NCBI GenBank assembly: GCA_005222965.1 | Contig: NJBG01000001.1 | Coordinates: 499,061 to 549,532, forward strand | Direction: 5' to 3' | Source: Candidatus Woesearchaeota archaeon B3_Woes | GTDB lineage: Archaea > Nanobdellota > Nanobdellia > Woesearchaeales > B3-WOES | DNA: 50,472 nt | Notes under the pieces: generated by a model | What the model was told of the DNA's origin: nothing | Databases searched by the model: none | The model's input: the letters and a program-made list of their open reading frames with translations, nothing else | Translations under genes and position numbers: made by a program | In this document: in pieces, positions 6,655 to 45,303 of the stretch | Layout: every line of letters starts with the position of its first letter | How positions within the stretch are numbered: position 1 is the stretch's first letter

Positions 6655-8256
6655 ATGCCCACACTAAAACAAACACTAAAAGGAAAATTAACAAGACAAG
6701 AACTGCAGCTAGTCCCCTCATCATTCGATGTAGTTGGTTCTATCCTGATTTTCTCAGAGTTTCCTAAAGAATTAGAAAGAAAAGAAAAAATAATTGCTCA
6801 ATCTTTAATCAAAGAATTAAAAAACGTAAAAACAATTTGTAAAAAAACAAGAAAATACTCTGGTAAACACAGAACACCAAAACTAAAAATTATGGCTGGA
6901 GAAAAAACAAAAGAAACAATACATAAAGAAAACAATATAACACTAAAACTAGATGTTGAAAAGGTTTATTTCTCCTCCCGACTCTCTAACGAAAGATTAA
7001 GAATTTCTAAATTAATAAAACCAAAAGAAAATGTTCTTGTTATGTTTTCGGGTTGTGCACCTTATCCTTGTGTAATAGCTAAAAACACTAAAGCGAACTC
7101 AATCATAGGAATTGAAATAAATCCTGTTGCTCACAAATATGCCCTTGAAAATATCAAACTAAACAAAATAACCAACACAACATTACATAAAGGCGATGTA
7201 AACAACATTTTACCAAAAATAGATTTTGAAGGAATAGCATTAAAATCAAGATGGCATAAAAAATATATTGGACCAAAACTAAAACAAAACCCCCCTTTAA
7301 TAGAATTTTATCTTCCAGAAGGAGATCTTGAATCTGATAAAAAACGAAAACAGATGGACAAAACAATAAAAAAACTTGCAAAAAAACAAATTAAAGTTAT
7401 GATCCATTCACCTCACGTTTATAACAAATCTAGGGAAATGTATTTAGCACAACACCCAGCAAAAATAAAGAACATAATAGAATGCATCAAAAAATTAGAT
7501 TCTGTCCAAAAAAATAATAAAAATGTTGTAGGACACATCTTTCACTCATCAGACGATAGATTAAAAAAAGACCACAAAGAAGAATGGTTGATTAAAAACA
7601 TAAAAACACTAAAAAAACTAGATTTATTAAAATACCTCTATCTTGAAAATGGAACAACAAAACCATTTGGTACAAAAAAAAGCATATTAAATGTTATTAA
7701 AAAAACACAACTAAAAAACATGTGCTTTGATTTTGCCCATTTTATGTATCTAAACAAAAAACTAACACTTGATGATTTCAAACAAATAAATTCTAAAACA
7801 AAACTATATAATCATGCAGTTAATCATAAATACAACAGTGGAGAACACTGTTGCAGATTAAGAGAAGGGGATCTTGATTTTAGAAAATTTGCAAAATACA
7901 TAGATTTCGGTTGTGTAGAAGTATATAGCAAAAGCGAAATAACAGCAAAAGAACAAATCGAAGACTATAAATATTTTTTATCAATAAAACCAACCAAAAA
8001 ATTTGACAGAATTCTAATGCCCCTCCCAAAATCAGCAGAAGATTATCTTGATTTAGCATTAACAAGAACAAAAAAAGGAACAATAATACATTTTTATGAT
8101 TTCCTAAATGAAAAAGAATTTGATTTAGCCAAACAAAAAGTGGAAAAAGCATGCAAAAAGGCAGAAAAGAAATTTAAAGTACTGAACCTTGTTAAATGCG
8201 GCCAATTCGCACCAAAAACATACAGAATCTGTTTAGATTTCAAGATATTATCATAA
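6655..8256 (+). CDS. Trm5/Tyw2-family SAM-dependent tRNA methyltransferase with inserted TIM-barrel domain
   Basis: SFDVVGSI, HKEN, VYFSSRLSNER, MFSGCAPY, GIEINP, GDV, then after a ~258-aa insert FDRILMPLP and IIHFY; insert carries AP-endonuclease-2/xylose-isomerase-like motifs. Confidence 0.85.
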   Translation: MPTLKQTLKGKLTRQELQLVPSSFDVVGSILIFSEFPKELERKEKIIAQSLIKELKNVKTICKKTRKYSGKHRTPKLKIMAGEKTKETIHKENNITLKLDVEKVYFSSRLSNERLRISKLIKPKENVLVMFSGCAPYPCVIAKNTKANSIIGIEINPVAHKYALENIKLNKITNTTLHKGDVNNILPKIDFEGIALKSRWHKKYIGPKLKQNPPLIEFYLPEGDLESDKKRKQMDKTIKKLAKKQIKVMIHSPHVYNKSREMYLAQHPAKIKNIIECIKKLDSVQKNNKNVVGHIFHSSDDRLKKDHKEEWLIKNIKTLKKLDLLKYLYLENGTTKPFGTKKSILNVIKKTQLKNMCFDFAHFMYLNKKLTLDDFKQINSKTKLYNHAVNHKYNSGEHCCRLREGDLDFRKFAKYIDFGCVEVYSKSEITAKEQIEDYKYFLSIKPTKKFDRILMPLPKSAEDYLDLALTRTKKGTIIHFYDFLNEKEFDLAKQKVEKACKKAEKKFKVLNLVKCGQFAPKTYRICLDFKILS

Positions 8257-8367: not shown

Positions 8368-10152
8368 TTAAACAACAAACTTCCCTTTCTTTATTATCCA
8401 ATGGTTTTTGTGTTTACTATCTACTCCATAGACATCCATCTTTTGTCGTGGAGAATTGATTACCATATCCCAATGATACAACGTTTTTCTGTCCGGCTCA
8501 AACCCCATCCCCATTGCAACGTGCATCATCCTTGCTATTTTTTCATTAACAATCAAATAATCACATAATTTTGCTTTAGGATTTAGATTTACAGCAAATT
8601 CCCCAATATAATTAAAACACCTTCTGTACATTTTAGTCATAGAAACAGGCAAGGCCTTTTTATCCTCTATGTTCCTTATCTTTTCCATAGCATCGTCCTT
8701 TGTTGTTTTCATTTTATCTAATATTTTCTTTGGACCACTAACTACTGTATATTTGTTATCTTTTACTTTTATCACCAAAGGCTGTTTTGGATTTAATCTA
8801 TAGCTTTGGTCAATACTAATTACAACATCTCCAACAATTAATCCTTCTAATTTTTCAGGTGTTACAAAAGCCTCACCAGAAGGAAAATTAGCATACAATC
8901 CAGATTTTATTCCGGTTGCTTTATAATACTCTTGATCAATTTTAGTTGTAACATCAGAATCAGAAGCAATAAAATACCTTCTAATTTTTTTATCATCACT
9001 AACAAGACAAACAGTAAAATCTGTTTTCAAACCATTTTTTTCTTCACCAATCACCCTTATCCTATCACACTTATCTAAAATTGATTTTATTTTTTTGCTC
9101 CTCTTTCTAATTTTTTCATAATCAACATCACAAGTTTCAATAAAAATGTCTATAGGCAAGGTTTCAGTCATTGCATACCTCATTATTGGGTCCCTTGTTT
9201 CATATTTTGTTTGAGCTTCATACCTATCTTTTAACATCATCTGACCAGGACTCGTCCATCTTGATTTTTTGTTCAGAGTAGGATACCCAATACTTTCTCC
9301 AAAAAACATTTTTCCAGTATATCCTTTCCCATGTATACCAAAACCAGCATCGTTTAACTCAATTTTTTCCGCACCGAGTATAGGGGACAAAATCTTAAAT
9401 TTCTTAAAGACTTCTTCATCAACTTCTTTATCTAACTCGCATCCAATCAAAGTAGACATTAAATCAATAGTCCTTACACTATTCGCCAAAACAGAAAACT
9501 TATTTGTTGATGAACCCAACCCAACATTAGCTTTTAATCTCCTAGCTTCTAACGCCATAGCCATAGCCATACTATAAGAATCCAAATAATCTTTTAAAGG
9601 GAGCTCTAAATCTTCTTTTTTTGGGATTGTCTCAAAACTTATTCCTAATCTTTCATTCTTTTTAATATCATAACCTTTTTTTAATAGGGTATTAACAGTA
9701 CCTACTAATTCATTCCATCTATATTTTTTATACCATGAAAATTTATATTCCAAATCAAGTGTTCCTGTGAATCCTTTTTCTGTAGAATACAATAATAATT
9801 CTGGTTTTTTGAAAATATTCTTAAAAACTTTTGTTTTTGTTCTTTTGTTCACTTCATTAATAAAACTTTTTAGTGCTTTGGTTTTCTCAGTCTCTAACCC
9901 CTTTCTCATATCATGATAAATATTCCATACTTTCTTTAAAACCAAAAAATTTTCAGATTCTTTATGTTTAACAAGAACATGTAGTTCTCCATCTAAGTTA
10001 TGAACAGCTCTACTTAAGGGAGCAATTGAAAAAAAGGCCTTTTTATTAGTCAGATCACACACCAAAAACAACAATTTATTATTAACTTTACCTCTCAAAG
10101 AATTCTCATAATATTTAACATCGCTCTCAAATTTTTTACTACTATACTTCAT
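8368..10152 (-). CDS. M29 (AmpS/AmpT)-like metallo-aminopeptidase with extended N-terminus
   Basis: NFPSGEAF, IGEFAVNLNP, NEKIARMMHVAMG and HWD supply the Glu/Glu/Glu/His/His/Asp ligands expected in M29. Confidence 0.75.
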   Translation of the reverse strand: MKYSSKKFESDVKYYENSLRGKVNNKLLFLVCDLTNKKAFFSIAPLSRAVHNLDGELHVLVKHKESENFLVLKKVWNIYHDMRKGLETEKTKALKSFINEVNKRTKTKVFKNIFKKPELLLYSTEKGFTGTLDLEYKFSWYKKYRWNELVGTVNTLLKKGYDIKKNERLGISFETIPKKEDLELPLKDYLDSYSMAMAMALEARRLKANVGLGSSTNKFSVLANSVRTIDLMSTLIGCELDKEVDEEVFKKFKILSPILGAEKIELNDAGFGIHGKGYTGKMFFGESIGYPTLNKKSRWTSPGQMMLKDRYEAQTKYETRDPIMRYAMTETLPIDIFIETCDVDYEKIRKRSKKIKSILDKCDRIRVIGEEKNGLKTDFTVCLVSDDKKIRRYFIASDSDVTTKIDQEYYKATGIKSGLYANFPSGEAFVTPEKLEGLIVGDVVISIDQSYRLNPKQPLVIKVKDNKYTVVSGPKKILDKMKTTKDDAMEKIRNIEDKKALPVSMTKMYRRCFNYIGEFAVNLNPKAKLCDYLIVNEKIARMMHVAMGMGFEPDRKTLYHWDMVINSPRQKMDVYGVDSKHKNHWIIKKGKFVV

Positions 10153-15582: not shown

Positions 15583-16518
15583 TTATCCGCTTACAATATG
15601 TTTAACCAAAACTTCCCTTTCTTTATGCTGCTTATAATCATATGTTAACAGCACATTGGCCTTTTTCTCAAAGTTTCCTTCCACTCCTGTTAAATCTTGT
15701 GTACAGATAATCTTTGATTTTCCATTATATAAGGTTGTATATCCTGTAGTTGGGCTTCCTCCTGTTAAACCAGTACAAGTTACACTTCCTATTCCTGTTT
15801 CAACCTCAACCCAAACTTTATTCTTTTTATCCAAACCAGAATCACAACTGCTTCCTAATTCAGATATTAAACCATTACTTCTGTGCACAACATCAAACGA
15901 AAGTCTAACTTTCCTTGTACCAGCAACCTCTTCCACCAAATTTTCAACCTGAACAGGCGCGCTTGAAACAGAACCAGTTTTTGGGCCAGATACATCACAA
16001 ACTTGATCTCCTCCTAAGGGTGTTAAATCTTCCAAAACACAGATATCGACTTGTGCCTTTGTTCCATACTTATAACACACATCTGCTCTTATGATATGTC
16101 TGTCAACTCCTGTTGCAGCACCTTCAAAATTAAATCCAGGAAAATTAACATAAGTAATAGTTCCTTTTCGTGCCTCTCCATCTGAATCAACATAAGCTCC
16201 TCTCAAATCTTCATCAGGATTTTTTTCAGTAGTTGGATTTGCAAAATCACCAGGATAAAAACCAGATAATTTAATTTTAATATCTTCTTTAGCAACATCA
16301 TACTCTCCTGCATTCTCAACATTTAATGTTACTTCAAAAGGTTGTTGTCCACCATCAAAAACCTCTGCTGGTGGAGTCTCTTCCATAAAATCAAACTTAA
16401 TAGAATCTGTTCCTCCTATAAATGCCCTTCCTCCAACCGTTTCTCCATCAGAACCACCTCCTGTACATCCTATTAAAAAAACCATTATTCCAATTAAAGC
16501 AAAAATTATTTTTTTCAT
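15583..16518 (-). CDS. Uncharacterised lipoprotein, paralog 3
   Basis: Lipobox FLIGC; shared motifs F-x4-PP-x-x-V-F, NAGEY, CYKYGT...IC, APVQV, LTYDY; GGAGG SD and own TATA-like box. Confidence 0.8.
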   Translation of the reverse strand: MKKIIFALIGIMVFLIGCTGGGSDGETVGGRAFIGGTDSIKFDFMEETPPAEVFDGGQQPFEVTLNVENAGEYDVAKEDIKIKLSGFYPGDFANPTTEKNPDEDLRGAYVDSDGEARKGTITYVNFPGFNFEGAATGVDRHIIRADVCYKYGTKAQVDICVLEDLTPLGGDQVCDVSGPKTGSVSSAPVQVENLVEEVAGTRKVRLSFDVVHRSNGLISELGSSCDSGLDKKNKVWVEVETGIGSVTCTGLTGGSPTTGYTTLYNGKSKIICTQDLTGVEGNFEKKANVLLTYDYKQHKEREVLVKHIVSG

Positions 16519-16580
16519 TGCACTAACCTCCTTATTTACCTATAATATCACTTATATATTTAACTTTTTCTATTAAATAC

Positions 16581-17507
16581 CTATTTAATATTAATTATTT
16601 TTATCTGTTTTTCTATTGAATTTGAATAAACATAATCCAGCTCAATATTTAAGTTTGTTGTATATGCAGAATCTGTTGCTGGTTTACTAAACTTACAAAA
16701 CATATATCCATTACCATTTGTTAATCTTATTGGATCAGAAGCAGTACCTTTTGGGCTGCACTCTGGGCTTGCATCATGAGGTAATTTTACTTTTGCAGTT
16801 ACTTTATCTAATTCACCAATTTCAACATCAAATGGGCAGTCATTATACGCTCTTGGCAGCATTACACTACCTCCCCCATTATTAGAAACATAAATTCTAA
16901 AATATATTTGATCAGAACCAACCTCTTCTTCAACATTTGTAACTGAAATAGGGGCACCTTGTCCCCCGCCTATTTGCACATTGTTAACATTACAAACCTT
17001 TCTTTCTTCAACTAAAGCATGCGGATCAGGGTCAATACAAACAACAGGATCAGCCACTGTTGTATATTTATAACACGAATGAACTATTATTCTTGGTTCA
17101 TAATAATCAGCATCAAAAGGAACATGGACGCCATTTCTATCTCTATAACTCATAACAGCATAACCGCCTTCAATATTATACTGGCTTCTCCCCTCTAAAT
17201 TGGTAGGGATTCGGTTTCCTCCTTCCCATGTACCAGTTATAGAAGAAGGATCAAAACCACTTATCTCTAATTTTCCCTGAAATGTTTTATCCTGTGGAAA
17301 AGCCCCTCTATTCCAGACTTCAACACTTATATCTAAATTATCTCCTTCATAAATCCTATAAGGTGGCGCATTGTTTATAAAATTCATCTCCAAACCCCTA
17401 GATCCTTTATGATAATCATCTTCAACCATCTGTTCGCTAGGACCTCTGCCACATCCAACTAAAACTAATAAAAGAATAATCAATACAGATAAAACAATTT
17501 TCTTCAT
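16581..17507 (-). CDS. Uncharacterised lipoprotein, paralog 2
   Basis: Lipobox VLVGC; GLEMNFINNAPP, NRGAF, CYKYTT...VCID, APISV, NNGGG, LDYVY; start taken at ATG 17507. Confidence 0.8.
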   Translation of the reverse strand: MKKIVLSVLIILLLVLVGCGRGPSEQMVEDDYHKGSRGLEMNFINNAPPYRIYEGDNLDISVEVWNRGAFPQDKTFQGKLEISGFDPSSITGTWEGGNRIPTNLEGRSQYNIEGGYAVMSYRDRNGVHVPFDADYYEPRIIVHSCYKYTTVADPVVCIDPDPHALVEERKVCNVNNVQIGGGQGAPISVTNVEEEVGSDQIYFRIYVSNNGGGSVMLPRAYNDCPFDVEIGELDKVTAKVKLPHDASPECSPKGTASDPIRLTNGNGYMFCKFSKPATDSAYTTNLNIELDYVYSNSIEKQIKIINIK

Positions 17508-17581
17508 TACACTTGCCTCTTTTATCACTTGATAATTAAAATAATTAATATTGCCTTATATAAAGTTTTCTAAAAATAATT

Positions 17582-18493
17582 TTATATTATTTTCCTTATC
17601 TCCACCCTTTTAGATATTGTATCAGTATAACCATAATCTAAATTAACAGTTAATATAGTAGAATAAGATGGAACATCTTTACTAATCCCTTCTTCTAAAA
17701 CGCATCTCACCACCTTTTCGCGCTCTTGTAATTTTATAGGAGAAGGCCTGCAAACCAAAGGCGTTTCAGACAAAAAAGCCTCAACTTCAATATAATTTAA
17801 GTCTTCAGGATTAATTTGTTCATCAGAACAGATTTTTTTAATACTATTTGGATTAGTCACTTCTCCCTGCCCTTTATTTTCTATATATATAACAAACATT
17901 GGTTTTATAATCCCATCATCTTCCATCATGTTTGGTTCTATTCTTACTATTGGAACATAAGATCCTTGTCCAGAACCAAAAACCATATCTTGTGCACTAC
18001 AGGCCTTTTTAGCTTTTTTAAGATTGTAAAAATCAGTATCTACACAAACAGTTTTACTAAAAAAAGTTTTATATCTATAACAAGATGTAGCAATAATATT
18101 AGAAGTAATTGTTTCTGTTTCTTTTCCAAGTTCTTTTGCTTTTACAAAAAAACTCACAATCTCCATATCCCCTTTAGGGTTACCAAGTGATTTGCCTTTT
18201 AATTTTAAATTTTTAATAATATCTCCTTTTTCTAATTCCATATTGTCTTCTTCTAAATTCAAAAGCAAATATCCCTCTATTATATCAAATGCGCCTTTAT
18301 TGCTTAATTCAATCCCAACAGGAAAAATATCATTTTCATAAACTTTTACAGGAGGCATATTTTGTCCAAAATTCGCCACTAAACCAATATTACCTTTATA
18401 CAAATCTTCATTAGTTATAGTTGCAGAAGGGCCTTCACTCTGACTACATCCAACAACAAACAATAAAACCATTATTAATAAAATCTTTTTCAT
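17582..18493 (-). CDS. Uncharacterised lipoprotein, paralog 1
   Basis: Lipobox FVVGC; GLVANFGQNMPP, NKGAF, CYRYKT...VCVD, NKGQG, LDYGY; ATGA overlap with the upstream membrane protein. Confidence 0.8.
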   Translation of the reverse strand: MKKILLIMVLLFVVGCSQSEGPSATITNEDLYKGNIGLVANFGQNMPPVKVYENDIFPVGIELSNKGAFDIIEGYLLLNLEEDNMELEKGDIIKNLKLKGKSLGNPKGDMEIVSFFVKAKELGKETETITSNIIATSCYRYKTFFSKTVCVDTDFYNLKKAKKACSAQDMVFGSGQGSYVPIVRIEPNMMEDDGIIKPMFVIYIENKGQGEVTNPNSIKKICSDEQINPEDLNYIEVEAFLSETPLVCRPSPIKLQEREKVVRCVLEEGISKDVPSYSTILTVNLDYGYTDTISKRVEIRKII

Positions 18494-20781
18494 GTTATAT
18501 CTCCCCACTCTCCTGGTTTACACAACGCTAAAGGATAATATAGATTTTCATCTTCATTGGCATCTGTAGTACATGTCCATTTTTTTTCGAAACAAAAAAT
18601 CCCATCATGTTGACTAGGGTTACACGCTAATTTACATTCTGTTGTCCAGTCTTCATTTCCCCCGCATCCTTCTACTGCAAACAAATCCTCTTGGACATCT
18701 TCTATTTCACCACCATCAACATCTACAGGAGGAGTTGTTGCGACATCCACCTCTCCTCCTTCAATTCCACCACAAGTCATATCTTTATAGATGTGCTGGC
18801 CTTTTAATATTTCGCATCCATCAGGACACAAACACCCATCATCATCAATACATACCCTAGTACATTCTCTTTCAGCGAAAACAGTTCTAACCCCATCTCC
18901 ACCTTTAACTTGTATACCAATTTCTTCATGAATATTATAATCATATTTTGCTACAACTTTTAAATATTTGGTAACTAATGGAACCTCTCCTAACAAATCA
19001 CTCTGATCTTGTACATATAATCTACACAAAATTGTTTCATAATTTTCAATCTCTCTTATTTCAATAGCATCTGATTCTATTTTAAACACATTATGTATCT
19101 TATCATCACATCCTTTTTCTTCCTCACCTATTTCTGAACAAGAAGAACTATCAAATATATAATTTCTTTTTCCTCTACAAGAATAAACTCCTTCTGCATT
19201 TTTTTCTAATTCCATTTCGTTTGGTGTAACTATGTAAAAATCTGTAACTTTTTGTATTTCTCCATCCCACCAATTTGTCAAAGTAGTACCTAATCTAAAA
19301 TCTTTATCAGCACTTAAAGGCGGCTTCCCTACATCTAAACCAATCATTATTGGGCCGTTTGTATATACAGCACGAGGATCTCTATCCACAATCCCATAAT
19401 TTTCTAGAGGATCTATTCCTTCTCTCATTAAGGCCCTTCTTCGTTCTGGATCCATAAAATAAGTCTTAATATAAGCCATCGTTAAAAAATTAAATTTAGC
19501 ATTCATACTAATCTCATGATAACCTTCTATTAATAACCCTGGCTCAAAACTACATTCAATACCTTCTTCTTCAAAACTTTCAACATCAAAAACTTCTTTA
19601 GGATATATCTCCACACCTTCAATCACTTCTCCATCTACAGTACATCCTATCTCCACCTCAATCGGCTCATCAAGAGTTTTAGCAACTAATGTGGCCCATA
19701 TATTTACTGGTTGATCTTCATAAAATTCTGTATCTGCTCCCTGAAGGTCTTCAATATAAACACCAAGCCTTTCTCTGGCTTTTCTATCGATATCTCCTGT
19801 ATAATATTCCCCCAAAGTAGCATTAGCTTGTCCCTCAGCAAAAGAAGTTACAGATGAGGTTACAGACTCTTTTAGATTTTCCCAAGCTTCCGTTACAACT
19901 TTTAGTGCTGATGTTTTATCTTCTCCAGTAATTGTGTCCATCTTAACACCACTAATTTCAGCACCACCCAAGGTAAAGTAAGACAAAACATAAAACATAA
20001 TAACTACAAACCACAAAAAAGATTTCCAACCAGAGTCTCTAGCAAAAAGAAGAGCCACTAAAAACCAAACAGGAACAAGCAATTTAATAGAACTAATAAA
20101 AGGAATATTAGAAAACCAGATTTCTAATGCTGAGAAAAGAAAAAAATCACAAAAAAGAAAGAAAACAAACAAATAATTTACATGCACCCGATCTTCTATA
20201 GAATAATAAAGAACCCATATTAAGACACAAACCCCAAACACAAGATGCAAAACAGCACCTATATTAAACTCCCTATTCATAGCTAAAATCAACCACATGC
20301 CCTCTACAAGAACAAAAAAAGAAAACGCTTCTCGTATATTCCTCTTTTTTAAAAGTATATAACCCAAAATAATTCCTATCACAAAAATATTAGTAAAAAA
20401 TCCAACATAAGGGGCAAAACCCTCTCTTGAAAAATAGAAAGTGTTTACAAAACTACTATACTCAAAACCCTTGAACCCCGTCACAAAAATATCAATAAAA
20501 TACAATGCAACAGCCGCAATCACCCACCAAAAACTTCCACCCTGCCTTCTATTAGAAAAAGAATCATAAAAATTTGTGCCTCTTGATGCTTTTGAGGAGG
20601 GGTTTTCTTTTTCAGCTTTCTTCCTTTCTTCCGCTTCTTTCTTTGCTTGTGCTCTAGCGTTCTTTCTTCCTTTCTTTGAAGCTTCTAATCTTGCTTTTTG
20701 TTCAGCAAGTACAGCTGGATCAACAGGTTCTGGTTCTTCTGCCTTGTTTTTTTTGAAGAATGTAGGTAGCTTAAATTTCAT
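18490..20781 (-). CDS. Large polytopic membrane protein with acidic extracellular domain and Cys-rich tail
   Basis: Charged N-terminus, about 7 hydrophobic segments, acidic beta-rich domain (GPIMIGL, AKYDY), C-terminal Cys clusters; GAGGT SD. Confidence 0.75.
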   Translation of the reverse strand: MKFKLPTFFKKNKAEEPEPVDPAVLAEQKARLEASKKGRKNARAQAKKEAEERKKAEKENPSSKASRGTNFYDSFSNRRQGGSFWWVIAAVALYFIDIFVTGFKGFEYSSFVNTFYFSREGFAPYVGFFTNIFVIGIILGYILLKKRNIREAFSFFVLVEGMWLILAMNREFNIGAVLHLVFGVCVLIWVLYYSIEDRVHVNYLFVFFLFCDFFLFSALEIWFSNIPFISSIKLLVPVWFLVALLFARDSGWKSFLWFVVIMFYVLSYFTLGGAEISGVKMDTITGEDKTSALKVVTEAWENLKESVTSSVTSFAEGQANATLGEYYTGDIDRKARERLGVYIEDLQGADTEFYEDQPVNIWATLVAKTLDEPIEVEIGCTVDGEVIEGVEIYPKEVFDVESFEEEGIECSFEPGLLIEGYHEISMNAKFNFLTMAYIKTYFMDPERRRALMREGIDPLENYGIVDRDPRAVYTNGPIMIGLDVGKPPLSADKDFRLGTTLTNWWDGEIQKVTDFYIVTPNEMELEKNAEGVYSCRGKRNYIFDSSSCSEIGEEEKGCDDKIHNVFKIESDAIEIREIENYETILCRLYVQDQSDLLGEVPLVTKYLKVVAKYDYNIHEEIGIQVKGGDGVRTVFAERECTRVCIDDDGCLCPDGCEILKGQHIYKDMTCGGIEGGEVDVATTPPVDVDGGEIEDVQEDLFAVEGCGGNEDWTTECKLACNPSQHDGIFCFEKKWTCTTDANEDENLYYPLALCKPGEWGDIT

Positions 20782-20807
20782 CCTAACCTCGTAAAGAAAT
20801 AAAAAAA

Positions 20808-22010
20808 TTAATCTTCATCATCATCCTTTTCAATCAATTCAATTTGTATACTAACAATATCAACTGTAGTCTTTGGTATTAATTTAACATAATTCCTACC
20901 TTCCTCAACCCAACTATTAATTTGTTTTTCATAAAAAGGCTCTTCTTGATCAACTCTTCTCATATGACCATTTACATTTATATCAAGCTCTTTGTTTTCA
21001 TCATCATCAACAAATTCTAAAGTTAAATTTGCATCAGATACCCCTCCCATGATGTTCTCCATTTGTTCTTCACTTATCTCAAACCAATATAAAGGAGAAC
21101 TTAGTTCTTCTAATTCTAAATCAATTTCTATAAGATCAATCAGATAACTACCCTCATTAGTCATAAAGATTACATTATTTATTCCAGCATCTAAAGCTCC
21201 AACAGGAACTTCATATCTGTTTAGCATCCCGCAATCAGGAACACCAGAAAATACATTTATATTGTTAACCATAACATCTAATGTTCCAACTTCATTTTGT
21301 TTACAATCTGGATGGAATTTTAAAGTTGCTTTTTCTAAATTATTATATTTCCATGGTTCTAATGTGAATATATTCTTTGTTTTTTGTCTGCTAATGTCTG
21401 TTACATCCCCTATAATCTTCACACCCTCAAAATTATATTCATTTGTACTCCAAAAAGCAAGACCTACTCCAGAAACACTAAACTTTAAAGTATTGCCCTC
21501 ATCATTAAAATATTGTTTTCTTAACTTAATAGGTTCAACATTTTGGGTTGTAATTAAACTTTCATAAATATTGTTTCCATTAAGGTCTACTGACAAAACA
21601 CCAGAATGTTTTCTAACAGAAAAACTTAGAATTATATTATCGCTATTATCTAAATTATCTATAAAAAAACTCTTTTCAACAATTTTTTCATCAAACCAGC
21701 CCTTCCTAATAGAAAAGTCATTAAACACTTCAAGCTCTTTAGCATTAGTGGTTTTGTAAAGCTTAAACGATGGAATATCAATCTCAAATTCGTCACCCTT
21801 TAGATAATCCAATCTTCCAGGCTCTTCATCCAATAAAACACTTACTTCCTCATCCTCACTATCTACATTCCCATTATTATCTCCTTCCTCACCCAATAAA
21901 TCTGCCCTTTCAGCAGGCTCTAAAAATAGAATATAAAGAATAATCAAACCAGCAATTATAGCAACTAATCCTGCAGCTCCTCCACCACTTTGCCCTCTTT
22001 TTTTAACCAT
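20808..22010 (-). CDS. Acidic exported protein with class III (pilin-like) signal peptide
   Basis: MVKKRG/QS followed by hydrophobic AAGLVAIIAGLIILYILFL; acidic beta-rich body; start taken at ATG 22010 after AGGTGA SD. Confidence 0.65.
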   Translation of the reverse strand: MVKKRGQSGGGAAGLVAIIAGLIILYILFLEPAERADLLGEEGDNNGNVDSEDEEVSVLLDEEPGRLDYLKGDEFEIDIPSFKLYKTTNAKELEVFNDFSIRKGWFDEKIVEKSFFIDNLDNSDNIILSFSVRKHSGVLSVDLNGNNIYESLITTQNVEPIKLRKQYFNDEGNTLKFSVSGVGLAFWSTNEYNFEGVKIIGDVTDISRQKTKNIFTLEPWKYNNLEKATLKFHPDCKQNEVGTLDVMVNNINVFSGVPDCGMLNRYEVPVGALDAGINNVIFMTNEGSYLIDLIEIDLELEELSSPLYWFEISEEQMENIMGGVSDANLTLEFVDDDENKELDINVNGHMRRVDQEEPFYEKQINSWVEEGRNYVKLIPKTTVDIVSIQIELIEKDDDED

Positions 22011-22071
22011 AAACGTCACCTACTCTCAAATAATAAATAACTTTATATATAAATCTTTTTATTTTAACAAT

Positions 22072-36585: not shown

Positions 36586-36983
36586 CCTAACATCCTTTTT
36601 AATAAATCATTAATCTTGTCTCCTCTATACCCTAATCCACCACTTTTTGAAAAAGCAACTTTGATACCTTTTCTCCCAAACCCTTTTCTAGGAGGATTTA
36701 ATCTAAAAAACTTTTTAATAACTTCCTTTCCTTCTTTATTTTTTGTTTTTTCTCCTCTTTTCTTAACAACCAAATCTTCAGTTTCTTTATCTATTTCTCC
36801 ATAAGTAACATAATCTTTTACCTTCTTAATCATTCCAAAATCTTTTTTATCTATCAAAACACAATAATTTTTACGATAAAGCCCCATCAACTCCATAGTG
36901 TGATTTATTTCTTTTTTTACTCTAACTAAACCCCTTATTCTTATTACAGCATATTTAACATTGGGTTTTGATTCTTCACTCAT
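36582..36983 (-). CDS. rpl30: Ribosomal protein uL30
   Basis: AVIRIRG, KVKDYVTYGE, FRLNPPRKG, INDLLKRM. Confidence 0.96.
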   Translation of the reverse strand: MSEESKPNVKYAVIRIRGLVRVKKEINHTMELMGLYRKNYCVLIDKKDFGMIKKVKDYVTYGEIDKETEDLVVKKRGEKTKNKEGKEVIKKFFRLNPPRKGFGRKGIKVAFSKSGGLGYRGDKINDLLKRMLG

Positions 36984-37770
36984 CTTTTTTATCCTCTTCT
37001 TCTACTTTTTCTGTCGTTTTCTTAATAGAACCTTCCATCACACCAACATTCTCGCTTCCTTTTTGATTAACTCTTGTATCCATTAATTTTCTTAAAGCCA
37101 TATCGCAAGCATATATAAGATTGTTCTTACTTTTTGTCTGACCAGATGTCCTTGACCACACATCTTTGATTCCAGCCAAACTTAAAATTTTCTGACTTTC
37201 TTTTTCAACCTTTAATCCAGTTCCTTTTGGAGCAGGCATCAACACAACCTTTACAGAACCACACTTCCCTTCTACTCTAAAAGGAATACTATGGGGCTCT
37301 TTACACCCGCATTGCCACGATCCACAACCCCTCCTTATTTTTATTAAGTTTAATCTTGCATTTCTAAAGGCCTTTTCTCTAGCAGGCACAGTCTCCTTAC
37401 TTTTCCCAAAACCAATCCCAACATATCCATCTCTATTACCAACTATAGCACAAGTAGAAAAATGAGGTTTATTGCCTTCTCTTGTTTTCTTTTGGGTTTG
37501 TTTAAATACTCTTCTTTGACCCCCGCCAAACTTACCTTTTGCTTGTCCAACCAACAATAATTCTGATTCAATATTAGGTATTAAAACATCTACAATTTCT
37601 GATTCTAGAATTCTAATTCCATTATCAAGTACAAAATCAATATTATTTACTTCACCACTCTTAACCTGTTTCCCTAATTTTGTTTTTGGTTTCCAACTCT
37701 CTTTATCAAATTCCTTAACAAAACCTTCTTTACGTCTTTCTTTTGGTTTATATTTAGTTTTTTCTTTCAT
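36976..37770 (-). CDS. rps5: Ribosomal protein uS5
   Basis: WKPKTKLG, RRGCGSW, PAPKGTGL; start taken at ATG 37770. Confidence 0.96.
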   Translation of the reverse strand: MKEKTKYKPKERRKEGFVKEFDKESWKPKTKLGKQVKSGEVNNIDFVLDNGIRILESEIVDVLIPNIESELLLVGQAKGKFGGGQRRVFKQTQKKTREGNKPHFSTCAIVGNRDGYVGIGFGKSKETVPAREKAFRNARLNLIKIRRGCGSWQCGCKEPHSIPFRVEGKCGSVKVVLMPAPKGTGLKVEKESQKILSLAGIKDVWSRTSGQTKSKNNLIYACDMALRKLMDTRVNQKGSENVGVMEGSIKKTTEKVEEEDKKDE

Positions 37771-37771
37771 A

Positions 37772-38332
37772 TTAATCAATCTTCTTTTTAGTTTCTTCAA
37801 AATATTTAGGTATATCTTCAGCTTTAATACCTTTTTTTACATAAGATGAAAAAATCTTCTCATATTTTCCCTCTTTTATTAATTTTTGAGCATAATTTGC
37901 TATATGAACCCCTTTTACCGCATCTTCACTGGGAAATATGTCTTCTGAACATGGAACATTTAATCCAGCATCCAAAACACCTTTTAATGAGGCATACAAT
38001 CTACCCCCTTTTATACTCTTTCCTAATCCAATATCTAAAATAGCGCATTTAATGCCTTTTTTTGCTGCCTTTTTCCCAACCAAATAACCTGTTAAATATG
38101 CTGCTGGTAAATTTGTTCTTCCTGCTTTCCATTCAAACTTTTTTTCAAGTTCTTTAGAATCAGCAGAAACCAATATTTTATCCCCTTTCTCATTGTATTC
38201 TATAAGTTGTATAGTCATGTTTTTCAAAGATTTTCTTATTATTAATCTAGGTTTTTCATTTAACAATAAGTTCAACCTTTTTTTATAATCAGTTTTCCCT
38301 TCTCTCTTCCTTCTAAATTCAACACGTTTCAT
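37772..38332 (-). CDS. rpl18: Ribosomal protein uL18
   Basis: RRKREGKTDY, NLPAAYLTG, LDIGL. Confidence 0.97.
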   Translation of the reverse strand: MKRVEFRRKREGKTDYKKRLNLLLNEKPRLIIRKSLKNMTIQLIEYNEKGDKILVSADSKELEKKFEWKAGRTNLPAAYLTGYLVGKKAAKKGIKCAILDIGLGKSIKGGRLYASLKGVLDAGLNVPCSEDIFPSEDAVKGVHIANYAQKLIKEGKYEKIFSSYVKKGIKAEDIPKYFEETKKKID

Positions 38333-38784
38333 TTTTTATTTTTAGCCAAACCATGCTCCTCGATATATAGTTTAATATGCCTTCTACTTCTAAAAAATCC
38401 ACCTTGAGCTTTTTTATAAAGTTCTCTATAAATTTTTTGATCAACGATCTCTCCATCTTTCAAGTTTCTTAATAATTCTCTTTGAGTTCTTATCTTAATC
38501 ATCCATTTTTCTTTTTTAGGAAATCTTGCAGTTTTCTTACCTTTTCTAGATCCTTTACCACGCATCTGACCTTTACTCTTTTGTTTTTGGATTTTCCTAG
38601 CTCTAACTCTTGAAACTCCCCTTTTAGGAATACAATAGATAGCACTATCTTTTATCAAAGATTTAATATCAGCTTTAGTTATGCTTTCTTTTATCTCATC
38701 TAACCTTTCAGTATCAAACCTAACATGTTTTTCTGAACATCCAAAAACATCCGCGGCTAATCTTTTCTGAATTTTTAATTTCAT
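38329..38784 (-). CDS. rpl19e: Ribosomal protein eL19
   Basis: QKRLAA, GSRKGKKTAR, YKKAQGGFF. Confidence 0.97.
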   Translation of the reverse strand: MKLKIQKRLAADVFGCSEKHVRFDTERLDEIKESITKADIKSLIKDSAIYCIPKRGVSRVRARKIQKQKSKGQMRGKGSRKGKKTARFPKKEKWMIKIRTQRELLRNLKDGEIVDQKIYRELYKKAQGGFFRSRRHIKLYIEEHGLAKNKK

Positions 38785-39356
38785 ACTTCCCTCTTAGTCA
38801 ATAACTTATCCTTTTCTTTCTTCTCTTTTTTCTTATCTTCATCATCAACTTTGGCTTCGATACCGTCTTTTTTATCTTCGTCTTTACTCTTCTTTTCGGC
38901 AATTTTTTTGCTCTTTTCTTCCTGTTTCTTCTTTTTGCTCTCTTTTTGCTCTTTCAGATTTGTTTCTGAATCACTCAAAAATTTTGCAGGATCTTTTAAA
39001 GACATAATCTTTAAATTAAGTTTTAAACACTCTTTTACAATCTCTATTTTCTTTTTAATACCGAAATTTGATAAACAAACAACATCATCTTTATTTAATC
39101 CTTTAATATCATTCATATTTTTTATTAAAACTATATTTTGGCCATCTCTGCTCATTCCTCTTGCTTCTACAGGCCCCCTAAATCCAACCTTCACCTTTCT
39201 TGGATATCCCTTGCGCCCTATTTTTATCTTTGAATCAGATCCACGAGGTTTTCTCCATTTATTGGCCAGCCTTTTCTTTTTATGACTGCTTTGTTTATTA
39301 AAATCTGGTTTCTTTTTCTTCTTCATATTCCTTAAATTAACAATATTATCAACCAT
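38781..39356 (-). CDS. rpl32e: Ribosomal protein eL32 with charged C-terminal extension
   Basis: KPDF, KWRKPRGSDSK, VGFRGP; start taken at ATG 39356. Confidence 0.94.
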   Translation of the reverse strand: MVDNIVNLRNMKKKKKPDFNKQSSHKKKRLANKWRKPRGSDSKIKIGRKGYPRKVKVGFRGPVEARGMSRDGQNIVLIKNMNDIKGLNKDDVVCLSNFGIKKKIEIVKECLKLNLKIMSLKDPAKFLSDSETNLKEQKESKKKKQEEKSKKIAEKKSKDEDKKDGIEAKVDDEDKKKEKKEKDKLLTKREV

Positions 39357-39361
39357 CTTAA

Positions 39362-39907
39362 TCAAACCATCTTACCATCTTTTTCTGTAATATAAATACC
39401 ATCCTGGAAAATTCTTAAATCCTTGCCTTTTATTTTTGTTAAAATTTCAATATCAGCAGCAGTTTGTGCAGCAAGTTCTTTATCAATACCACTAATAGTT
39501 ACAATATCCCCTTCAATTTTTACATCAGCACCATCCTTTAAATTCAACTCTCTAGGTGTTTTTTCACCTAAAAAATTATTTACAATAAATTTATTCTCTT
39601 TCATTGTAACATTCATAGGAAAATGCCCTGAACAAATTTTTAATTTGTAAATATGACCTTCTGTAACACCCTTAAACATATTTTTTATATGCGCTTTAAA
39701 AGTCCCGCTCATTGTTTTTTCTCTTTTTGTTCCATTTTTAAAACTTATAACAACATTTTTGTCAACAACACTTAAACTTACTTTTTTATGTTTTAATTGT
39801 CTTGACAATTCCTTATCTTTATTTGAAACTGTAATAATACCCTCCTCTATCTTAACTTCTATTCCTTCTGGAATTTCAATTTTCCCTTCATATTCTTTTA
39901 TTTTCAT
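39362..39907 (-). CDS. rpl6: Ribosomal protein uL6
   Basis: HIKNMFKGV, HFPM, NFLGEK, DLRIFQDGIYI. Confidence 0.97.
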   Translation of the reverse strand: MKIKEYEGKIEIPEGIEVKIEEGIITVSNKDKELSRQLKHKKVSLSVVDKNVVISFKNGTKREKTMSGTFKAHIKNMFKGVTEGHIYKLKICSGHFPMNVTMKENKFIVNNFLGEKTPRELNLKDGADVKIEGDIVTISGIDKELAAQTAADIEILTKIKGKDLRIFQDGIYITEKDGKMV

Positions 39908-43007: not shown

Positions 43008-43325
43008 TTAGTATCTTTTTTTGATTTCGATTGTGTTTGATGCAAATCCCATTTGAATTAAAAATTCTTTAACCTTTTTTGTGTGTTCTCCTTGTAACTC
43101 AATTTTCCCTTTTTTCACTGTGCCTCCACAAGCGAATTTTGACTTTAGTTGTTTTGTCAAATCCTTAAGGTCTATCTCTTTGTTATCAATACCATCTATT
43201 GTTGTTTCTAATTTGCCAAATTTTCTTTTTTCTATGCCAATAACAATTGTTTGGCTTTCTTTGGCTATTGTTTCACAAACACAAAGGTCTTTAGGTAATC
43301 CACATCGTGAACAAATTTCACTCAT
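43008..43325 (-). CDS. sui1: Translation initiation factor aIF1 (SUI1)
   Basis: CSRCGLPKDLCVC, LKSKFACGGT, IELQGEH; start taken at ATG 43325. Confidence 0.96.
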   Translation of the reverse strand: MSEICSRCGLPKDLCVCETIAKESQTIVIGIEKRKFGKLETTIDGIDNKEIDLKDLTKQLKSKFACGGTVKKGKIELQGEHTKKVKEFLIQMGFASNTIEIKKRY

Positions 43326-43533
43326 TAGTTTTTTCACCCTCCTTATTATTCAATAATTGAATTATTCTTGCTATTGTTTTTTTCATTTGTTTTATCTGAC
43401 CAGGGCTTTTTGGAGTTGTTCCAACAGCTATCTGGGCATTTTCTTTAATTAATTCTTTTCTAAGCTCCAAAAGCTTAGCGTTTAAATCTCCTTTATTCAT
43501 ATTCTTCAATTCTTTTTTATTTATAATTGCCAT
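43318..43533 (-). CDS. rpl29: Ribosomal protein uL29
   Basis: LRKEL, PGQIKQMKKTIARI. Confidence 0.95.
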   Translation of the reverse strand: MAIINKKELKNMNKGDLNAKLLELRKELIKENAQIAVGTTPKSPGQIKQMKKTIARIIQLLNNKEGEKTNE

Positions 43534-43535
43534 AT

Positions 43536-44792
43536 TTAATTTTTACCTTCTTCGATTTTTACTAAATCAACGTCAGCAGCAATACCTTTAATAGCCTCAA
43601 TTGCTAATTCAAAAAAATCATTTAATTCTAATCCTAACTTTTCACACTCTTTTATTATATCCCTATTGATGGAAGCCACAAAAGCCTTATCCTTAAATTT
43701 CTTTTTCAATCCCTTAACTTCCATCCCTTCCATCGATCCCCTCATCAAAGCATAAGCATGGATTAAACCAGTAATTGTTTCAGAACACGCAAGAGCATGT
43801 TCAACCTTTTTAGTCCTTTTTTTATCTTTTAACTCTGCACAATCAAACCCATAACCATGTGAAATAATAGTATTAATAAAATCGTCACTAAATCCTGCTT
43901 CTTTTAAAATTTCAGGGGCTTTAGTTAAATGCTCTTTAGTATTATTTTTTGTTAAACCCCAGTCAACATCATGCAATAAACCAAGCATACCCCATTCTTC
44001 TTCATTTTTCTCTAATTTTTTAGCCAAAGCCTTCATAATAGCTTCACTCTCAAGATAGTGATTAAGGTCTGATTTTTCCTTGTTATGCTTTTTCAAAAGT
44101 TTTAGCGCAGCATCTCGTGTTAATGGAAGACCAGATTTAGATTCTTTTTCCTCTTTCTTTTCTTCGTCTTTTACTTCAGGTTCTTTTGCTTCCTCCTCTC
44201 CTTCAAACGTAATCTTATCAGGCAATTCAATATCAGGAGGCATAATCCTAACCTGAATACCAATCACACCTTTCTTAAGATTAGCAGTTTTATAAGCAGT
44301 TCTTATACCTGTTATTGAAATGTCTCCACATTTTTTCAGATAACCTTCATAAAATCTCCATCTTTTTGCTCTTGAACCAGGAATCTTTCCTGATATTATA
44401 ATTTCAACACCTAAAGCACCGGCAGCCATAACATTCTCTATTGTCTTATGACCTACTCCTTTGAATTTAGAAGACCCAAACCTTTCCAAAGATGTTGCAA
44501 TTCTTTCTGCAACAATATTAGCATCAAGATTTATATCTTCAACCTCATTTATCTCTATTTGGGGATTTTCCAATCCAAAATCTTCTTTCAATAATCTTGT
44601 TAACTTTCTTATATTCTCTCCTCCTCTCCCTACAACCAATCCGGGTCTAGACGCAAAAACAATTATTTTCTCACCAAGAGGGGTTTTTTGAAGTTTTATA
44701 TGACTTTGACCAACATCACCTAACAAATTACCTACATACTCTTGAATTTGAAATTCTTTCAATCTTTCAGCGACAAATTTTCTTTCAATCAT
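43536..44792 (-). CDS. rps3: Ribosomal protein uS3 fused to C-terminal HD-domain hydrolase
   Basis: KH domain (RPGLVVGRGG), GVEIIISGK, GIQVRIMPP; acidic/Lys linker; then TRDAA...NH...GLLHDVD...EH...SHG...KKKFKDKAF HD module. Confidence 0.93.
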   Translation of the reverse strand: MIERKFVAERLKEFQIQEYVGNLLGDVGQSHIKLQKTPLGEKIIVFASRPGLVVGRGGENIRKLTRLLKEDFGLENPQIEINEVEDINLDANIVAERIATSLERFGSSKFKGVGHKTIENVMAAGALGVEIIISGKIPGSRAKRWRFYEGYLKKCGDISITGIRTAYKTANLKKGVIGIQVRIMPPDIELPDKITFEGEEEAKEPEVKDEEKKEEKESKSGLPLTRDAALKLLKKHNKEKSDLNHYLESEAIMKALAKKLEKNEEEWGMLGLLHDVDWGLTKNNTKEHLTKAPEILKEAGFSDDFINTIISHGYGFDCAELKDKKRTKKVEHALACSETITGLIHAYALMRGSMEGMEVKGLKKKFKDKAFVASINRDIIKECEKLGLELNDFFELAIEAIKGIAADVDLVKIEEGKN

Positions 44793-45303
44793 TTTTCTTT
44801 TTACCTTCTTCTACTTTTTTATTATCTTCTTTTTTTATTTCAATTTTAGGTTTTTCTTCAGAAGGTTTTCTCTTTTCCTGAGTTTTTTCAACCAATATAA
44901 TATCCATATTAGTTCTTTTCATCTTCCTTCTTCTTTGTCTCCCATAATGCCAAGTATTGCTTCCTTGGTTAGCATTGATATGCCCTATAATCAAATTTGC
45001 AGTATTTAATGCCTTAAACTGAGCATTTGCTTCAGCAGATTTTAATAAGCTTAAAATCTCTGTTGAAGCCTTTAAAGGATATCTTCCAGGGCCCATACCT
45101 TTTTTGTGCCCCACTCCTTTATTGAATCGAGTAAATGGAACAACTTTTTCCTTTTTAATGACTCCTTCTAAAAAAGTTTTCATTTTCTGAACGTTTTTGC
45201 CCCTAATATAATTACTAATTTCAATAGCATGCCTTGTTGAAATAGGTAAAGCTCTTCCAACCGTTCTTGCCATTGTTTCCTTGTTATATTCTTTTACAAT
45301 CAT
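44785..45303 (-). CDS. rpl22: Ribosomal protein uL22
   Basis: VPFTRF, GRYPLKAS, SAEANA. Confidence 0.96.
   Translation of the reverse strand: MIVKEYNKETMARTVGRALPISTRHAIEISNYIRGKNVQKMKTFLEGVIKKEKVVPFTRFNKGVGHKKGMGPGRYPLKASTEILSLLKSAEANAQFKALNTANLIIGHINANQGSNTWHYGRQRRRKMKRTNMDIILVEKTQEKRKPSEEKPKIEIKKEDNKKVEEGKKKND

Follow-up and report, generated by a model that had tools for sequence, protein, structure and literature searches.

Core ribosomal proteins are, to our knowledge, almost never fused to enzymes. The natural ribosomal-protein fusions of eukaryotes, ubiquitin-eS31 and ubiquitin-eL40, join a ribosomal protein and an unrelated folded domain in one polypeptide, from which the non-enzymatic ubiquitin is cleaved off. 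In the small subunit, uS3 has its C-terminus close to the mRNA entry, on the solvent side. Among HD-domain enzymes, YqeK is a symmetric Ap4A hydrolase of Gram-positive bacteria, which splits Ap4A into two ADP, and NadD-YqeK fusions occur in mycoplasmas. YqeK occurs in fusion with the adenylyltransferase NadD or in a cluster with it, and hydrolyses the erroneous dinucleotide products of NadD as well as Ap4A (PMC9426524). The HD domain of the bacterial GlyRS beta subunit (GlyRS-beta) has lost the catalytic His-Asp pair (Ser-Lys in E. coli) and serves tRNA acceptor-arm binding or allostery (PMC8464048). Here we describe an open reading frame (ORF) in which the ribosomal protein uS3 is continued by an HD-type phosphohydrolase domain. 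It lies in a stretch of 50,472 nucleotides (nt), hereafter the window, from Candidatus Woesearchaeota archaeon B3_Woes (assembly GCA_005222965.1, contig NJBG01000001.1, positions 499,061 to 549,532 of the forward strand), whose genome (G000) comprises 1.02 Mb in 4 contigs and is 96% complete. On balance we lean, by a small measure and with the exact substrate left aside, towards the picture of a fusion of single origin that would carry a translation-linked hydrolase on the ribosome.

The fusion ORF lies at positions 43536..44792 of the window on the minus strand and reads without interruption through 418 amino acids (aa) and a stop, in the uL22-uS3-uL29 slot of a canonical archaeal ribosomal operon, as the initial annotation of this DNA had described. 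Pfam and equivalog profiles placed the uS3 part at residues 1-195 (44208..44792, minus strand), with KH_2 at residues 16-84 and Ribosomal_S3_C at residues 107-183. The translation contains a Glu/Lys-rich linker at residues 196-221 (44130..44207, minus strand; FEGEEEAKEPEVKDEEKKEEKESKSG), which may be flexible, judging by its composition. Profiles and an AlphaFold2 model placed an HDIG-type HD phosphohydrolase domain with a short tail at residues 222-418 (43539..44129, minus strand), the HD domain proper spanning residues 222-410 with its first residue, L222, at nt 44129. In profile scans the uS3 half matched NF003219 at 245.8 bits (cut-off 147; residues 1-219) and TIGR01008 at 220.5 bits (cut-off 150.25; residues 2-196), and residues 243-317 matched both Pfam HD (cut-off 22) at 26.4 bits and TIGR00277 (HDIG; cut-off 27.6) at 35.2 bits, scores that rose to 28.9 and 37.6 bits when the HD half was scanned by itself; the proposed layout of uS3, Glu/Lys linker and HD domain is thus borne out by matches above the cut-offs for both halves. 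The HD motifs quoted by the initial annotation were all located in the translation, between residues 245 and 371: the putative metal ligands are H245 (LNHY), H274, D275 and D277 (LLHDVD), H288, H312 (SHG) and E338 (ACSE), and the basic motif KKKFKDKAF occupies residues 363-371. A full-length uS3 query gave a single match in the genome (E<=1e-10). By its equivalog models, its KH and S3_C domains, its operon slot and its being the sole genome copy, the fusion belongs to the archaeal/eukaryotic uS3 proteins; it shares the core (KH plus S3_C) and the operon slot with ordinary archaeal uS3, but has a folded enzyme domain after about 26 tail residues. It resembles the ubiquitin fusions in joining a ribosomal protein to an unrelated folded domain, whereas its module is a putative hydrolase without sign of processing.

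We concluded that uS3-HD is a genuine gene fusion. Three further contigs, of 12, 82 and 14 kb, encode uS3-HD proteins of 419 aa (P0002, P0270 and P0271). The window protein is identical to P0002 at 369 of 419 positions (88%), the only gaps being two in-frame indels in the linker; its identities to the sister proteins are 181/195 in the uS3 part, 169-170/189 in the HD domain and 15/28 in the linker. The four assemblies, which represent two diverged lineages, all keep the fusion frame open, and all 7 putative ligand residues are retained in each of the four proteins; the HD half appears to be under constraint similar to that on uS3. Among the three sister proteins, the uS3 part and the linker are identical, and the 1-6 differences are all found in the HD half. 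In a third relative (L018), 91% identical over the end of uS3, the frame stays open 40 codons into the charged tail and there meets the end of its 1.5-kb contig, so that it may or may not be a further fusion. Since independent assemblies encode the fusion, a misassembly or a lost stop codon in one assembly is effectively excluded, and the one-off stop loss that the initial annotation had foreseen as a refutation was not seen. That a misassembly or sequencing error erased the stop codon between two genes is in our judgement extremely improbable: the fact that the exact 418-aa protein has no entry in the protein collection would fit such an artefact, but the three further contigs, a sister lineage whose frame stays open despite 50 differences in 419 alignment positions and two in-frame indels of the linker, the open frame of L018 and the uniform composition along the whole ORF all speak against it. 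The HD segment has a GC content of 0.327 and a GC content at third codon positions (GC3) of 0.239, within the range of the neighbouring genes (GC3 0.17-0.25), and on this host-like composition we rejected a recent transfer of the segment.

The statement that no internal Met precedes the HD part proved to be wrong. The ORF contains an internal ATG, M184 (44241..44243, minus strand), with AGGT 7 nt upstream, and there is no other Met from residue 184 to the HD domain. The recorded gene call of 235 aa (P0001, from a 1.0-Mb contig), which is the sole form in the protein collection, begins at M184. This Met lies within the conserved uS3 motif GIQVR[IV]MPPD, which G001, the one other genome of the family to which the window's genome belongs, also has in its unfused uS3; M184 is therefore not a start gained with the HD domain. 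The M184 start is a start-codon miscall caused by the fusion, and because the recorded form begins there, a 96%-complete genome would seem, by its annotation, to lack uS3, a trap which the fusion exposes. One could suppose that the ORF gives two products, with initiation at M184 or proteolysis in the linker also yielding a free HD protein, so that the ribosome keeps a uS3 of ordinary size and the fusion is only a device for co-expression. The AGGT before M184 does resemble the GAAGGT ahead of the uS3 and uL29 starts, the gene caller picked M184, and the linker is long, charged and fast-evolving. However, M184 and the codons upstream of it are conserved uS3 coding sequence that unfused relatives have as well, and initiation at M184 cannot terminate uS3, whose single copy means that the full-length fusion must still be made; we consider two products improbable.

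To place the HD half, its relatives were collected by an exhaustive search of 1.84 billion representatives, in which 33 relatives reached E<=1e-30, 610 reached E<=1e-10 and 1991 reached E<=1e-3. The 150 best of them are mostly proteins of 180-200 aa that stand alone. When 68 members were aligned, the residues H245, H274, D275 and D277 proved invariant, conservation of H288 and H312 was 90% or more, and an acidic residue, as judged by eye, stands at the position of E338; the family consensus includes KSVKKKFKxKxFAAGVxR, and a subgroup from DPANN and the candidate phyla radiation (CPR) has the insert GYGFDC...KDKKRT. The HDIG model was matched by 62 of the 68 members. Weak and partial matches were obtained to the HD part of RNase Y (40/68) and to the aTrm56-HD fusion model PRK12703 (39/68), and further ones to TIGR00295 (27/68), NTP-transferase-HD (25/68), NadD-YqeK (11/68) and YqeK (6/68). 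No curated specific family fits, the scores examined being far under the curated cut-offs. Membership in RNase Y was rejected, as TIGR03319 gave 17.5-19.8 bits against a cut-off of 454, in the HD region only. Searches for anti-phage defence HD nucleases gave 0 families at E<=0.01 in PADLOC and 0 in PHROGs, and the clusters of the protein atlas are labelled only generically as 'HD hydrolase'. The HD module thus represents a large, uncharacterised, mostly stand-alone, single-copy and patchy family. COG2316, to which the initial annotation had likened it, would be a candidate assignment, and the full-text literature searched contains no mention of that COG.

The fusion partners of the module were tallied from precomputed Pfam assignments of the 120 best hits, which have 229-732 aa, a range that lies outside the stand-alone form, and which are 46-73% identical to the HD half of the window protein. 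Class II LysRS domains accompany the module in 90 of these hits, FtsY in 9, NYN in 3 (P0026, P0027 and P0044), uS3 in 1 (P0002) and PF19269 in 1; one hit is the window's own 235-aa call, and 15 have HD only or no Pfam domain. The hits come from Woesearchaeota, Pacearchaeota and Nanoarchaeota and, in the CPR, from Magasanikbacteria, Peregrinibacteria and Parcubacteria. The possibility of fusions to other translation proteins, which the initial annotation had raised, has therefore materialised, with class II LysRS as the commonest partner and FtsY besides. Pfam domain order was examined on 37 long or extended representatives. An OB-fold, a class II core and a C-terminal HD follow one another in 16 of them, some being partial proteins; 2 (P0136 and P0257) have DUF2000 between the LysRS core and HD, and 1 (P0208) has HAD there. 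DUF2000 presumably folds like peptidyl-tRNA hydrolase 2, and this would point to tRNA chemistry. The others include one FtsY with HD before the N and G domains, one PAS-GGDEF-HD protein (P0155) and one beta-propeller-HD protein, and no uS3 partner was found among the 37. As a Rosetta-stone link, the fusions to class II LysRS, FtsY and uS3 assign the HD family to translation.

The fusion with uS3 is rare. In a survey set of 301 genomes, G000 and others of its order, of which seven (G205, G132, G183, G209, G207, G121 and G112) are unpublished and were used in order-wide counts only, a uS3 match was obtained in 288 genomes (E<=1e-10), and among 150 uS3 matches listed (167 more were unlisted) only that of G000 spans both halves. 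With the HD half as query (E<=1e-5), the module was found in 29 of the 301 genomes, always as one match per genome, and 272 gave no match. The 29 carriers were sorted by open-frame length and Pfam: 23 have frames of 185-230 aa, too short for uS3 and hence stand-alone, 3 (G223, G170 and G069) have a class II LysRS with a C-terminal HD, and there is 1 each with the uS3 fusion (G000), an FtsY fusion (G028) and a 99-aa fragment (G071). G001, which is 78% complete, has an unfused uS3 of 275 aa and no match to the HD module. The statement that uS3 is normally not fused to enzymes held up in a collection of 5.8 billion proteins, where HD occurs only in the cluster of P0002 among 49 uS3 clusters of 343-2000 aa; 43 of the 48 others contain uS3 domains only, one adds uL22, one uL29, two PF12949 and one PF01916. 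The last is P0301, a 401-aa uS3 with a PF01916 match, while P0275 and P0298 are a 506-aa uL22-uS3 and a 346-aa uS3-uL29; these could be real fusions, read-through or assembly errors. Scans of metagenome and genome contigs across the junction, with 80 loci kept in each, gave no best segment that spans both halves, and the relatives' loci came from Candidatus Woesearchaeota or Nanoarchaeota. The prospect of the same fusion in relatives was thus realised in the three sister contigs, but not in the order at large, where one of the 29 module carriers has it.

In a FastTree phylogeny of 161 HD domains, the four uS3-fused copies form one clade (support 100), whose nearest neighbours are P0004, fused to FtsY, and P0003, which is N-terminally extended. 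This clade is nested within a clade of 66 rows (support 98) that contains 26 LysRS-fused, 9 FtsY-fused, 2 NYN-fused, 14 N-extended and 11 stand-alone members. Along well-supported branches the LysRS label changes at least 6 times and the FtsY label at least 2 times. This branching indicates that the module has switched host proteins repeatedly in small-genome archaea and bacteria, and that its capture by uS3 happened once. A case from one genus (g29) is that HD is fused into FtsY in G028 (L002) and stands alone in G151 (L182), where its gene overlaps a Ski2-type helicase gene at the 3' end of the latter. Identity to the window copy is 70% for the G028 module and 61% for that of G151, which suggests either rapid relocation or two different acquisitions.

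The place of the capture can be compared with unfused relatives. Across 30 relatives' loci, 2 of whose ORFs have doubtful starts, uS3 measures 209-338 aa, and all of the variation is in low-complexity C-terminal tails rich in Lys, Glu, Pro and Ala. The charged tail of the unfused G001 protein has about 80 aa, and the Lys/Glu-rich tails of relatives reach about 140 aa; the linker of the fusion corresponds to the start of this variable tail. The module occupies the variable N-terminal region of FtsY and the C-terminus of LysRS, and we infer that all three sites are terminal, permissive ones in abundant translation proteins.

The AlphaFold2 model of the HD domain is all-helical, with a predicted local distance difference test (pLDDT) value of 95.7 and a predicted template modelling (pTM) score of 0.92. 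A wide fold search (VIA) found 36 chains at Z>=8, and the top 20 listed rows are all HD-domain proteins: GlyRS-beta HD (7yse, 8ie2 and 7xjy) at Z 11.5-12.4, the HD-GYP protein 4mcw and the c-di-AMP phosphodiesterase PgpH (4s1b) at Z 11.5 each, YqeK (2o08 and 8wmy) at Z 11.0-11.4, and 2pq7 at Z 10.9. Small alarmone hydrolases and Mesh1 reached Z 9-10. Since Z values of 11-12.4 do not discriminate among helical proteins and the search ties HD subfamilies, the fold assigns no substrate. Foldseek gave nothing against the PDB at E<=1e-3, its best hit being PgpH 4s1c (E 5.8e-3, TM 0.53), and phmmer with the HD half gave only chance-level matches in the PDB (E>=0.085). With the 68-member profile, the best PDB matches were of YqeK type, namely 8jja (5e-7), 2ogi (8.7e-7), 8wmy (1.6e-5), 2o08 (2.8e-5) and 3ccg (2.1e-4), followed by the uncharacterised 2pq7 at 7.5e-3.

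The likeness to YqeK consists in a length of about 190 aa, an all-helical HD fold and the ligand order H, HD, H, D; YqeK is likewise found fused to an adenylyl-transferring enzyme, whose by-products it clears (PMC9426524). The window family differs from YqeK in having hallmarks of its own, D277 and KKKFKxKxF, in its partners (LysRS, FtsY, uS3 and NYN) and in its taxa (DPANN and CPR). The top fold match is the GlyRS-beta chain 7yse_C (Z 12.4, root mean square deviation 3.7 over 163 residues), and the GlyRS-beta HD, like that of the LysRS-HD relatives, is part of an aminoacyl-tRNA synthetase (aaRS) polypeptide; its identity to the window domain is 10-14%, and the window domain retains every ligand. 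A dead domain of the GlyRS-beta type was therefore rejected, H274-D275 being present here and invariant in the family.

This comparison also bears on the proposal that the tethered HD domain is a ribosome-specific RNA enzyme, which might clear cleaved mRNA or tRNA of 2',3'-cyclic or 3'-phosphates, or take part in tRNA 3'-end processing, and for which the LysRS, NYN and uS3 fusions would all reflect closeness to RNA substrates. GlyRS-beta HD (7yse_C) approaches the tRNA acceptor arm, but it is catalytically dead (HD to SK), so the likeness is in fold alone (PMC8464048). The RNase Y HD part (40/68) and PRK12703 (39/68) are matched, but at about 20 bits against cut-offs of 434-454, and the Z values tie with those of nucleotide-directed HD enzymes. 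The NYN nuclease fusions, the one Ski2-type helicase neighbour (L182) and the family-wide conservation of the basic motif KKKFKxKxF agree with an RNA substrate; the rarity of the uS3 fusion (1 of 29 carriers) and the stand-alone state of most carriers, which lie beside genes of nucleotide or metabolite type (HAD, nucleoside phosphorylase, Nudix and RuBisCO), do not. We regard an RNA enzyme as possible and unlikely, though less so than the other rival functions considered here.

The same fold data touch on a third option, a phosphodiesterase of signal nucleotides (c-di-AMP, pApA, 2',3'-cNMP or (p)ppGpp-like) that would act near translation GTPases and the ribosome. It draws on the Foldseek hit to PgpH, on 4mcw and 4s1b at Z 11.5, on the alarmone hydrolases and Mesh1, on the one GGDEF-PAS-HD representative (P0155) and on FtsY, a GTPase, as a partner. 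2',3'-cNMPs and c-di-AMP occur in some archaea, whereas (p)ppGpp and c-di-GMP are undescribed there (PMC10249747). Against this option, Foldseek found nothing at E<=1e-3, LysRS rather than a signalling protein dominates among the partners, and HD-GYP family models went unmatched in profile scans, the signature itself not having been examined. We think a signalling role quite improbable.

The neighbourhoods of the other copies were compared. Two stand-alone HD genes lie directly downstream of aaRS genes, one overlapping a class I enzyme of the Ile/Leu/Val/Met group (L004) and one after a class IIb core (L195). In two genomes of different families, stand-alone HD belongs to a same-strand array, dnaK-HAD-HD-dnaJ in G149 (L183) and HAD-HAD-HD-dnaJ in G002 (L003). 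The heat-shock operon context and the pairing with HAD are recurrent in the HD family, the pairing being present also in the LysRS-HAD-HD protein P0208. Elsewhere stand-alone HD adjoins HAD and RuBisCO (L197 and L005), nucleoside phosphorylase (L179 and L180), Nudix (L189), uL16 (L185), a Ski2-type helicase (L182), AMMECR1 (L178) and NAD kinase (L006), and the remaining loci have other or unannotated neighbours. In L192 (G223) and L199 (G069), an ORF of PF05618 ('putative ATP-dependent zinc protease') and a gene for a RimK-like ATP-grasp protein come after the LysRS-HD gene.

Taken together, we favour the following sequence of events and functions. A single-copy HD module would have been captured, once, into the long, variable, charged C-terminal tail that uS3 has in this Woesearchaeota-like (DPANN) archaeon. 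Because uS3 is single-copy in this genome and its core is intact, the uS3 part would assemble into the 30S head as usual, and ribosomes must use the fusion polypeptide unless it is cleaved. Probably, then, the linker of about 26 Glu/Lys-rich residues would hold one active, metal-dependent HD hydrolase per ribosome on the solvent side, near the mRNA entry. The job of the domain would be a translation-associated housekeeping hydrolysis of a nucleotide-type substrate, one that is not specific to the ribosome, and fusion to abundant translation proteins would provide co-expression and co-localisation. We prefer this to an activity at the entry channel because the module works elsewhere as a stand-alone protein or on LysRS and FtsY, and because the uS3 version is found in only 1 of the 29 carriers of the order; a general nucleotide hydrolase linked to translation fits the data better than an activity that evolved for the mRNA entry site. 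The ribosome-tethered phosphohydrolase of the initial annotation thus survives in that uS3 is single-copy and the ligands are kept, and gives way in that the HD module is not ribosome-specific.

For the substrate, the YqeK profile matches, the contexts and the literature make a nucleotide type the best single guess. Archaea contain Ap4A, most of it synthesised by aaRSs, and its level increases upon heat shock (PMC10249747). Dinucleoside polyphosphates such as Ap4A, or other by-products of adenylyl transfer by aaRSs, are our tentative candidates, which we put somewhat short of an even chance. The two substrates that the initial annotation had considered, RNA ends and a nucleotide signal, are hence ranked anew: a nucleotide-type substrate of this class is favoured, the RNA-end role comes second and the nucleotide signal third, the nearest solved relatives by sequence being YqeK proteins.

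Several observations weigh against this reading. The profile match to YqeK in the PDB is strong over the first ~50 residues only. The window domain did not match the YqeK model (TIGR00488 / COG1713) at E<=0.1, and the 6 relatives out of 68 that do match it do so weakly (E<=1e-3). In the structural model, the fold ties YqeK with GlyRS-beta HD, HD-GYP and PgpH. Stand-alone neighbourhoods are heterogeneous, and the few differences among the sister proteins are all confined to the HD half. G000 has a class I LysRS (PF01921, E 3e-100; L223, C1:842717-843793, outside the window), and no class II LysRS was found in it, its sole strong tRNA-synt_2 match being a bacterial-type AspRS of 582 aa (NF001750, 809.7 bits; L201, C1:574957-576246, outside the window), so that the logic of the LysRS fusions is not directly applicable in this genome. 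The genome has 8 Nudix, 4 HIT and 8 HD loci in total, and the Nudix, the HIT and the 7 HD loci besides the fusion could degrade Ap4A; an argument that the fusion is the only Ap4A enzyme available is ruled out by these loci. Finally, as 272 of the 301 genomes gave no match, any function of the HD module must be dispensable or replaceable.

A bolder idea is that the HD domain is a ribosome-resident catalyst beside the mRNA entry channel, acting on the RNA that is translated or delivered there. It might heal 2',3'-cyclic or 3'-phosphate ends on stalled ribosomes, or might free the ribosome of Np4N-type caps or of inhibitory nucleotides bound to it. We hold this to be doubtful. If true, nature would here have made an enzyme part of a core ribosomal protein, and the LysRS-, FtsY- and NYN-fused relatives would do the same chemistry at other translation stations.

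The full-text literature, subscription journals excluded, yielded no account of a uS3-HD fusion or of the LysRS-HD family. Neither half is new; the uS3-HD combination is a new architecture, seen in one uncultured lineage only. Such a conserved polypeptide of uS3 and hydrolase would be a catalyst that nature has tethered to the ribosome, and the fusion yields a concrete hypothesis, hydrolysis of Ap4A, NpnN or adenylyl by-products versus healing of RNA ends.

The operon around the fusion runs uL3, uL4, uL23, uL2, uS19, uL22, fusion ORF, uL29, SUI1, uS17, uL14, uL24 and eS4, and continues beyond eS4 to uL15, SecY and a YidC/EMC3-like gene; several of the smaller genes were named from translation and gene order alone. 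The upstream neighbour is uL22 (44785..45303, minus strand; named from operon order and sequence), whose stop the fusion start overlaps by 8 nt, and the fusion stop lies 2 nt ahead of the ATG of the downstream neighbour uL29 (43318..43533, minus strand; identified from its ORF translation). The 14-mer GAAGAAGGTAAAAA precedes the uS3 start (44793-44817, inside the 3' end of uL22) and recurs in the last codons of the fusion (43536-43560), where it precedes the uL29 start, 11 nt ahead of the ATG; both genes probably share it as an initiation region of Shine-Dalgarno type that lies within coding sequence.

Some other features of the window and its genome were also recorded. In the window, uS5 (36976-37800, minus strand) has 274 aa with its Pfam domains beginning at residue 99, which leaves a long N-terminal extension, and eL32 (38781-39365, minus strand) has 194 aa. 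A TRM5/TYW2 methyltransferase ORF of 533 aa (6655-8256, plus strand) contains two matched stretches. Extended or duplicated translation proteins thus seem to be common in this genome, which also pairs the bacterial-type AspRS with the archaeal class I LysRS. No Pfam match at E<=1e-6 was obtained for five consecutive ORFs of 311, 315, 308, 763 and 403 aa (15583-22019, minus strand), nor for an ORF of 594 aa at 8368-10152 on the minus strand.

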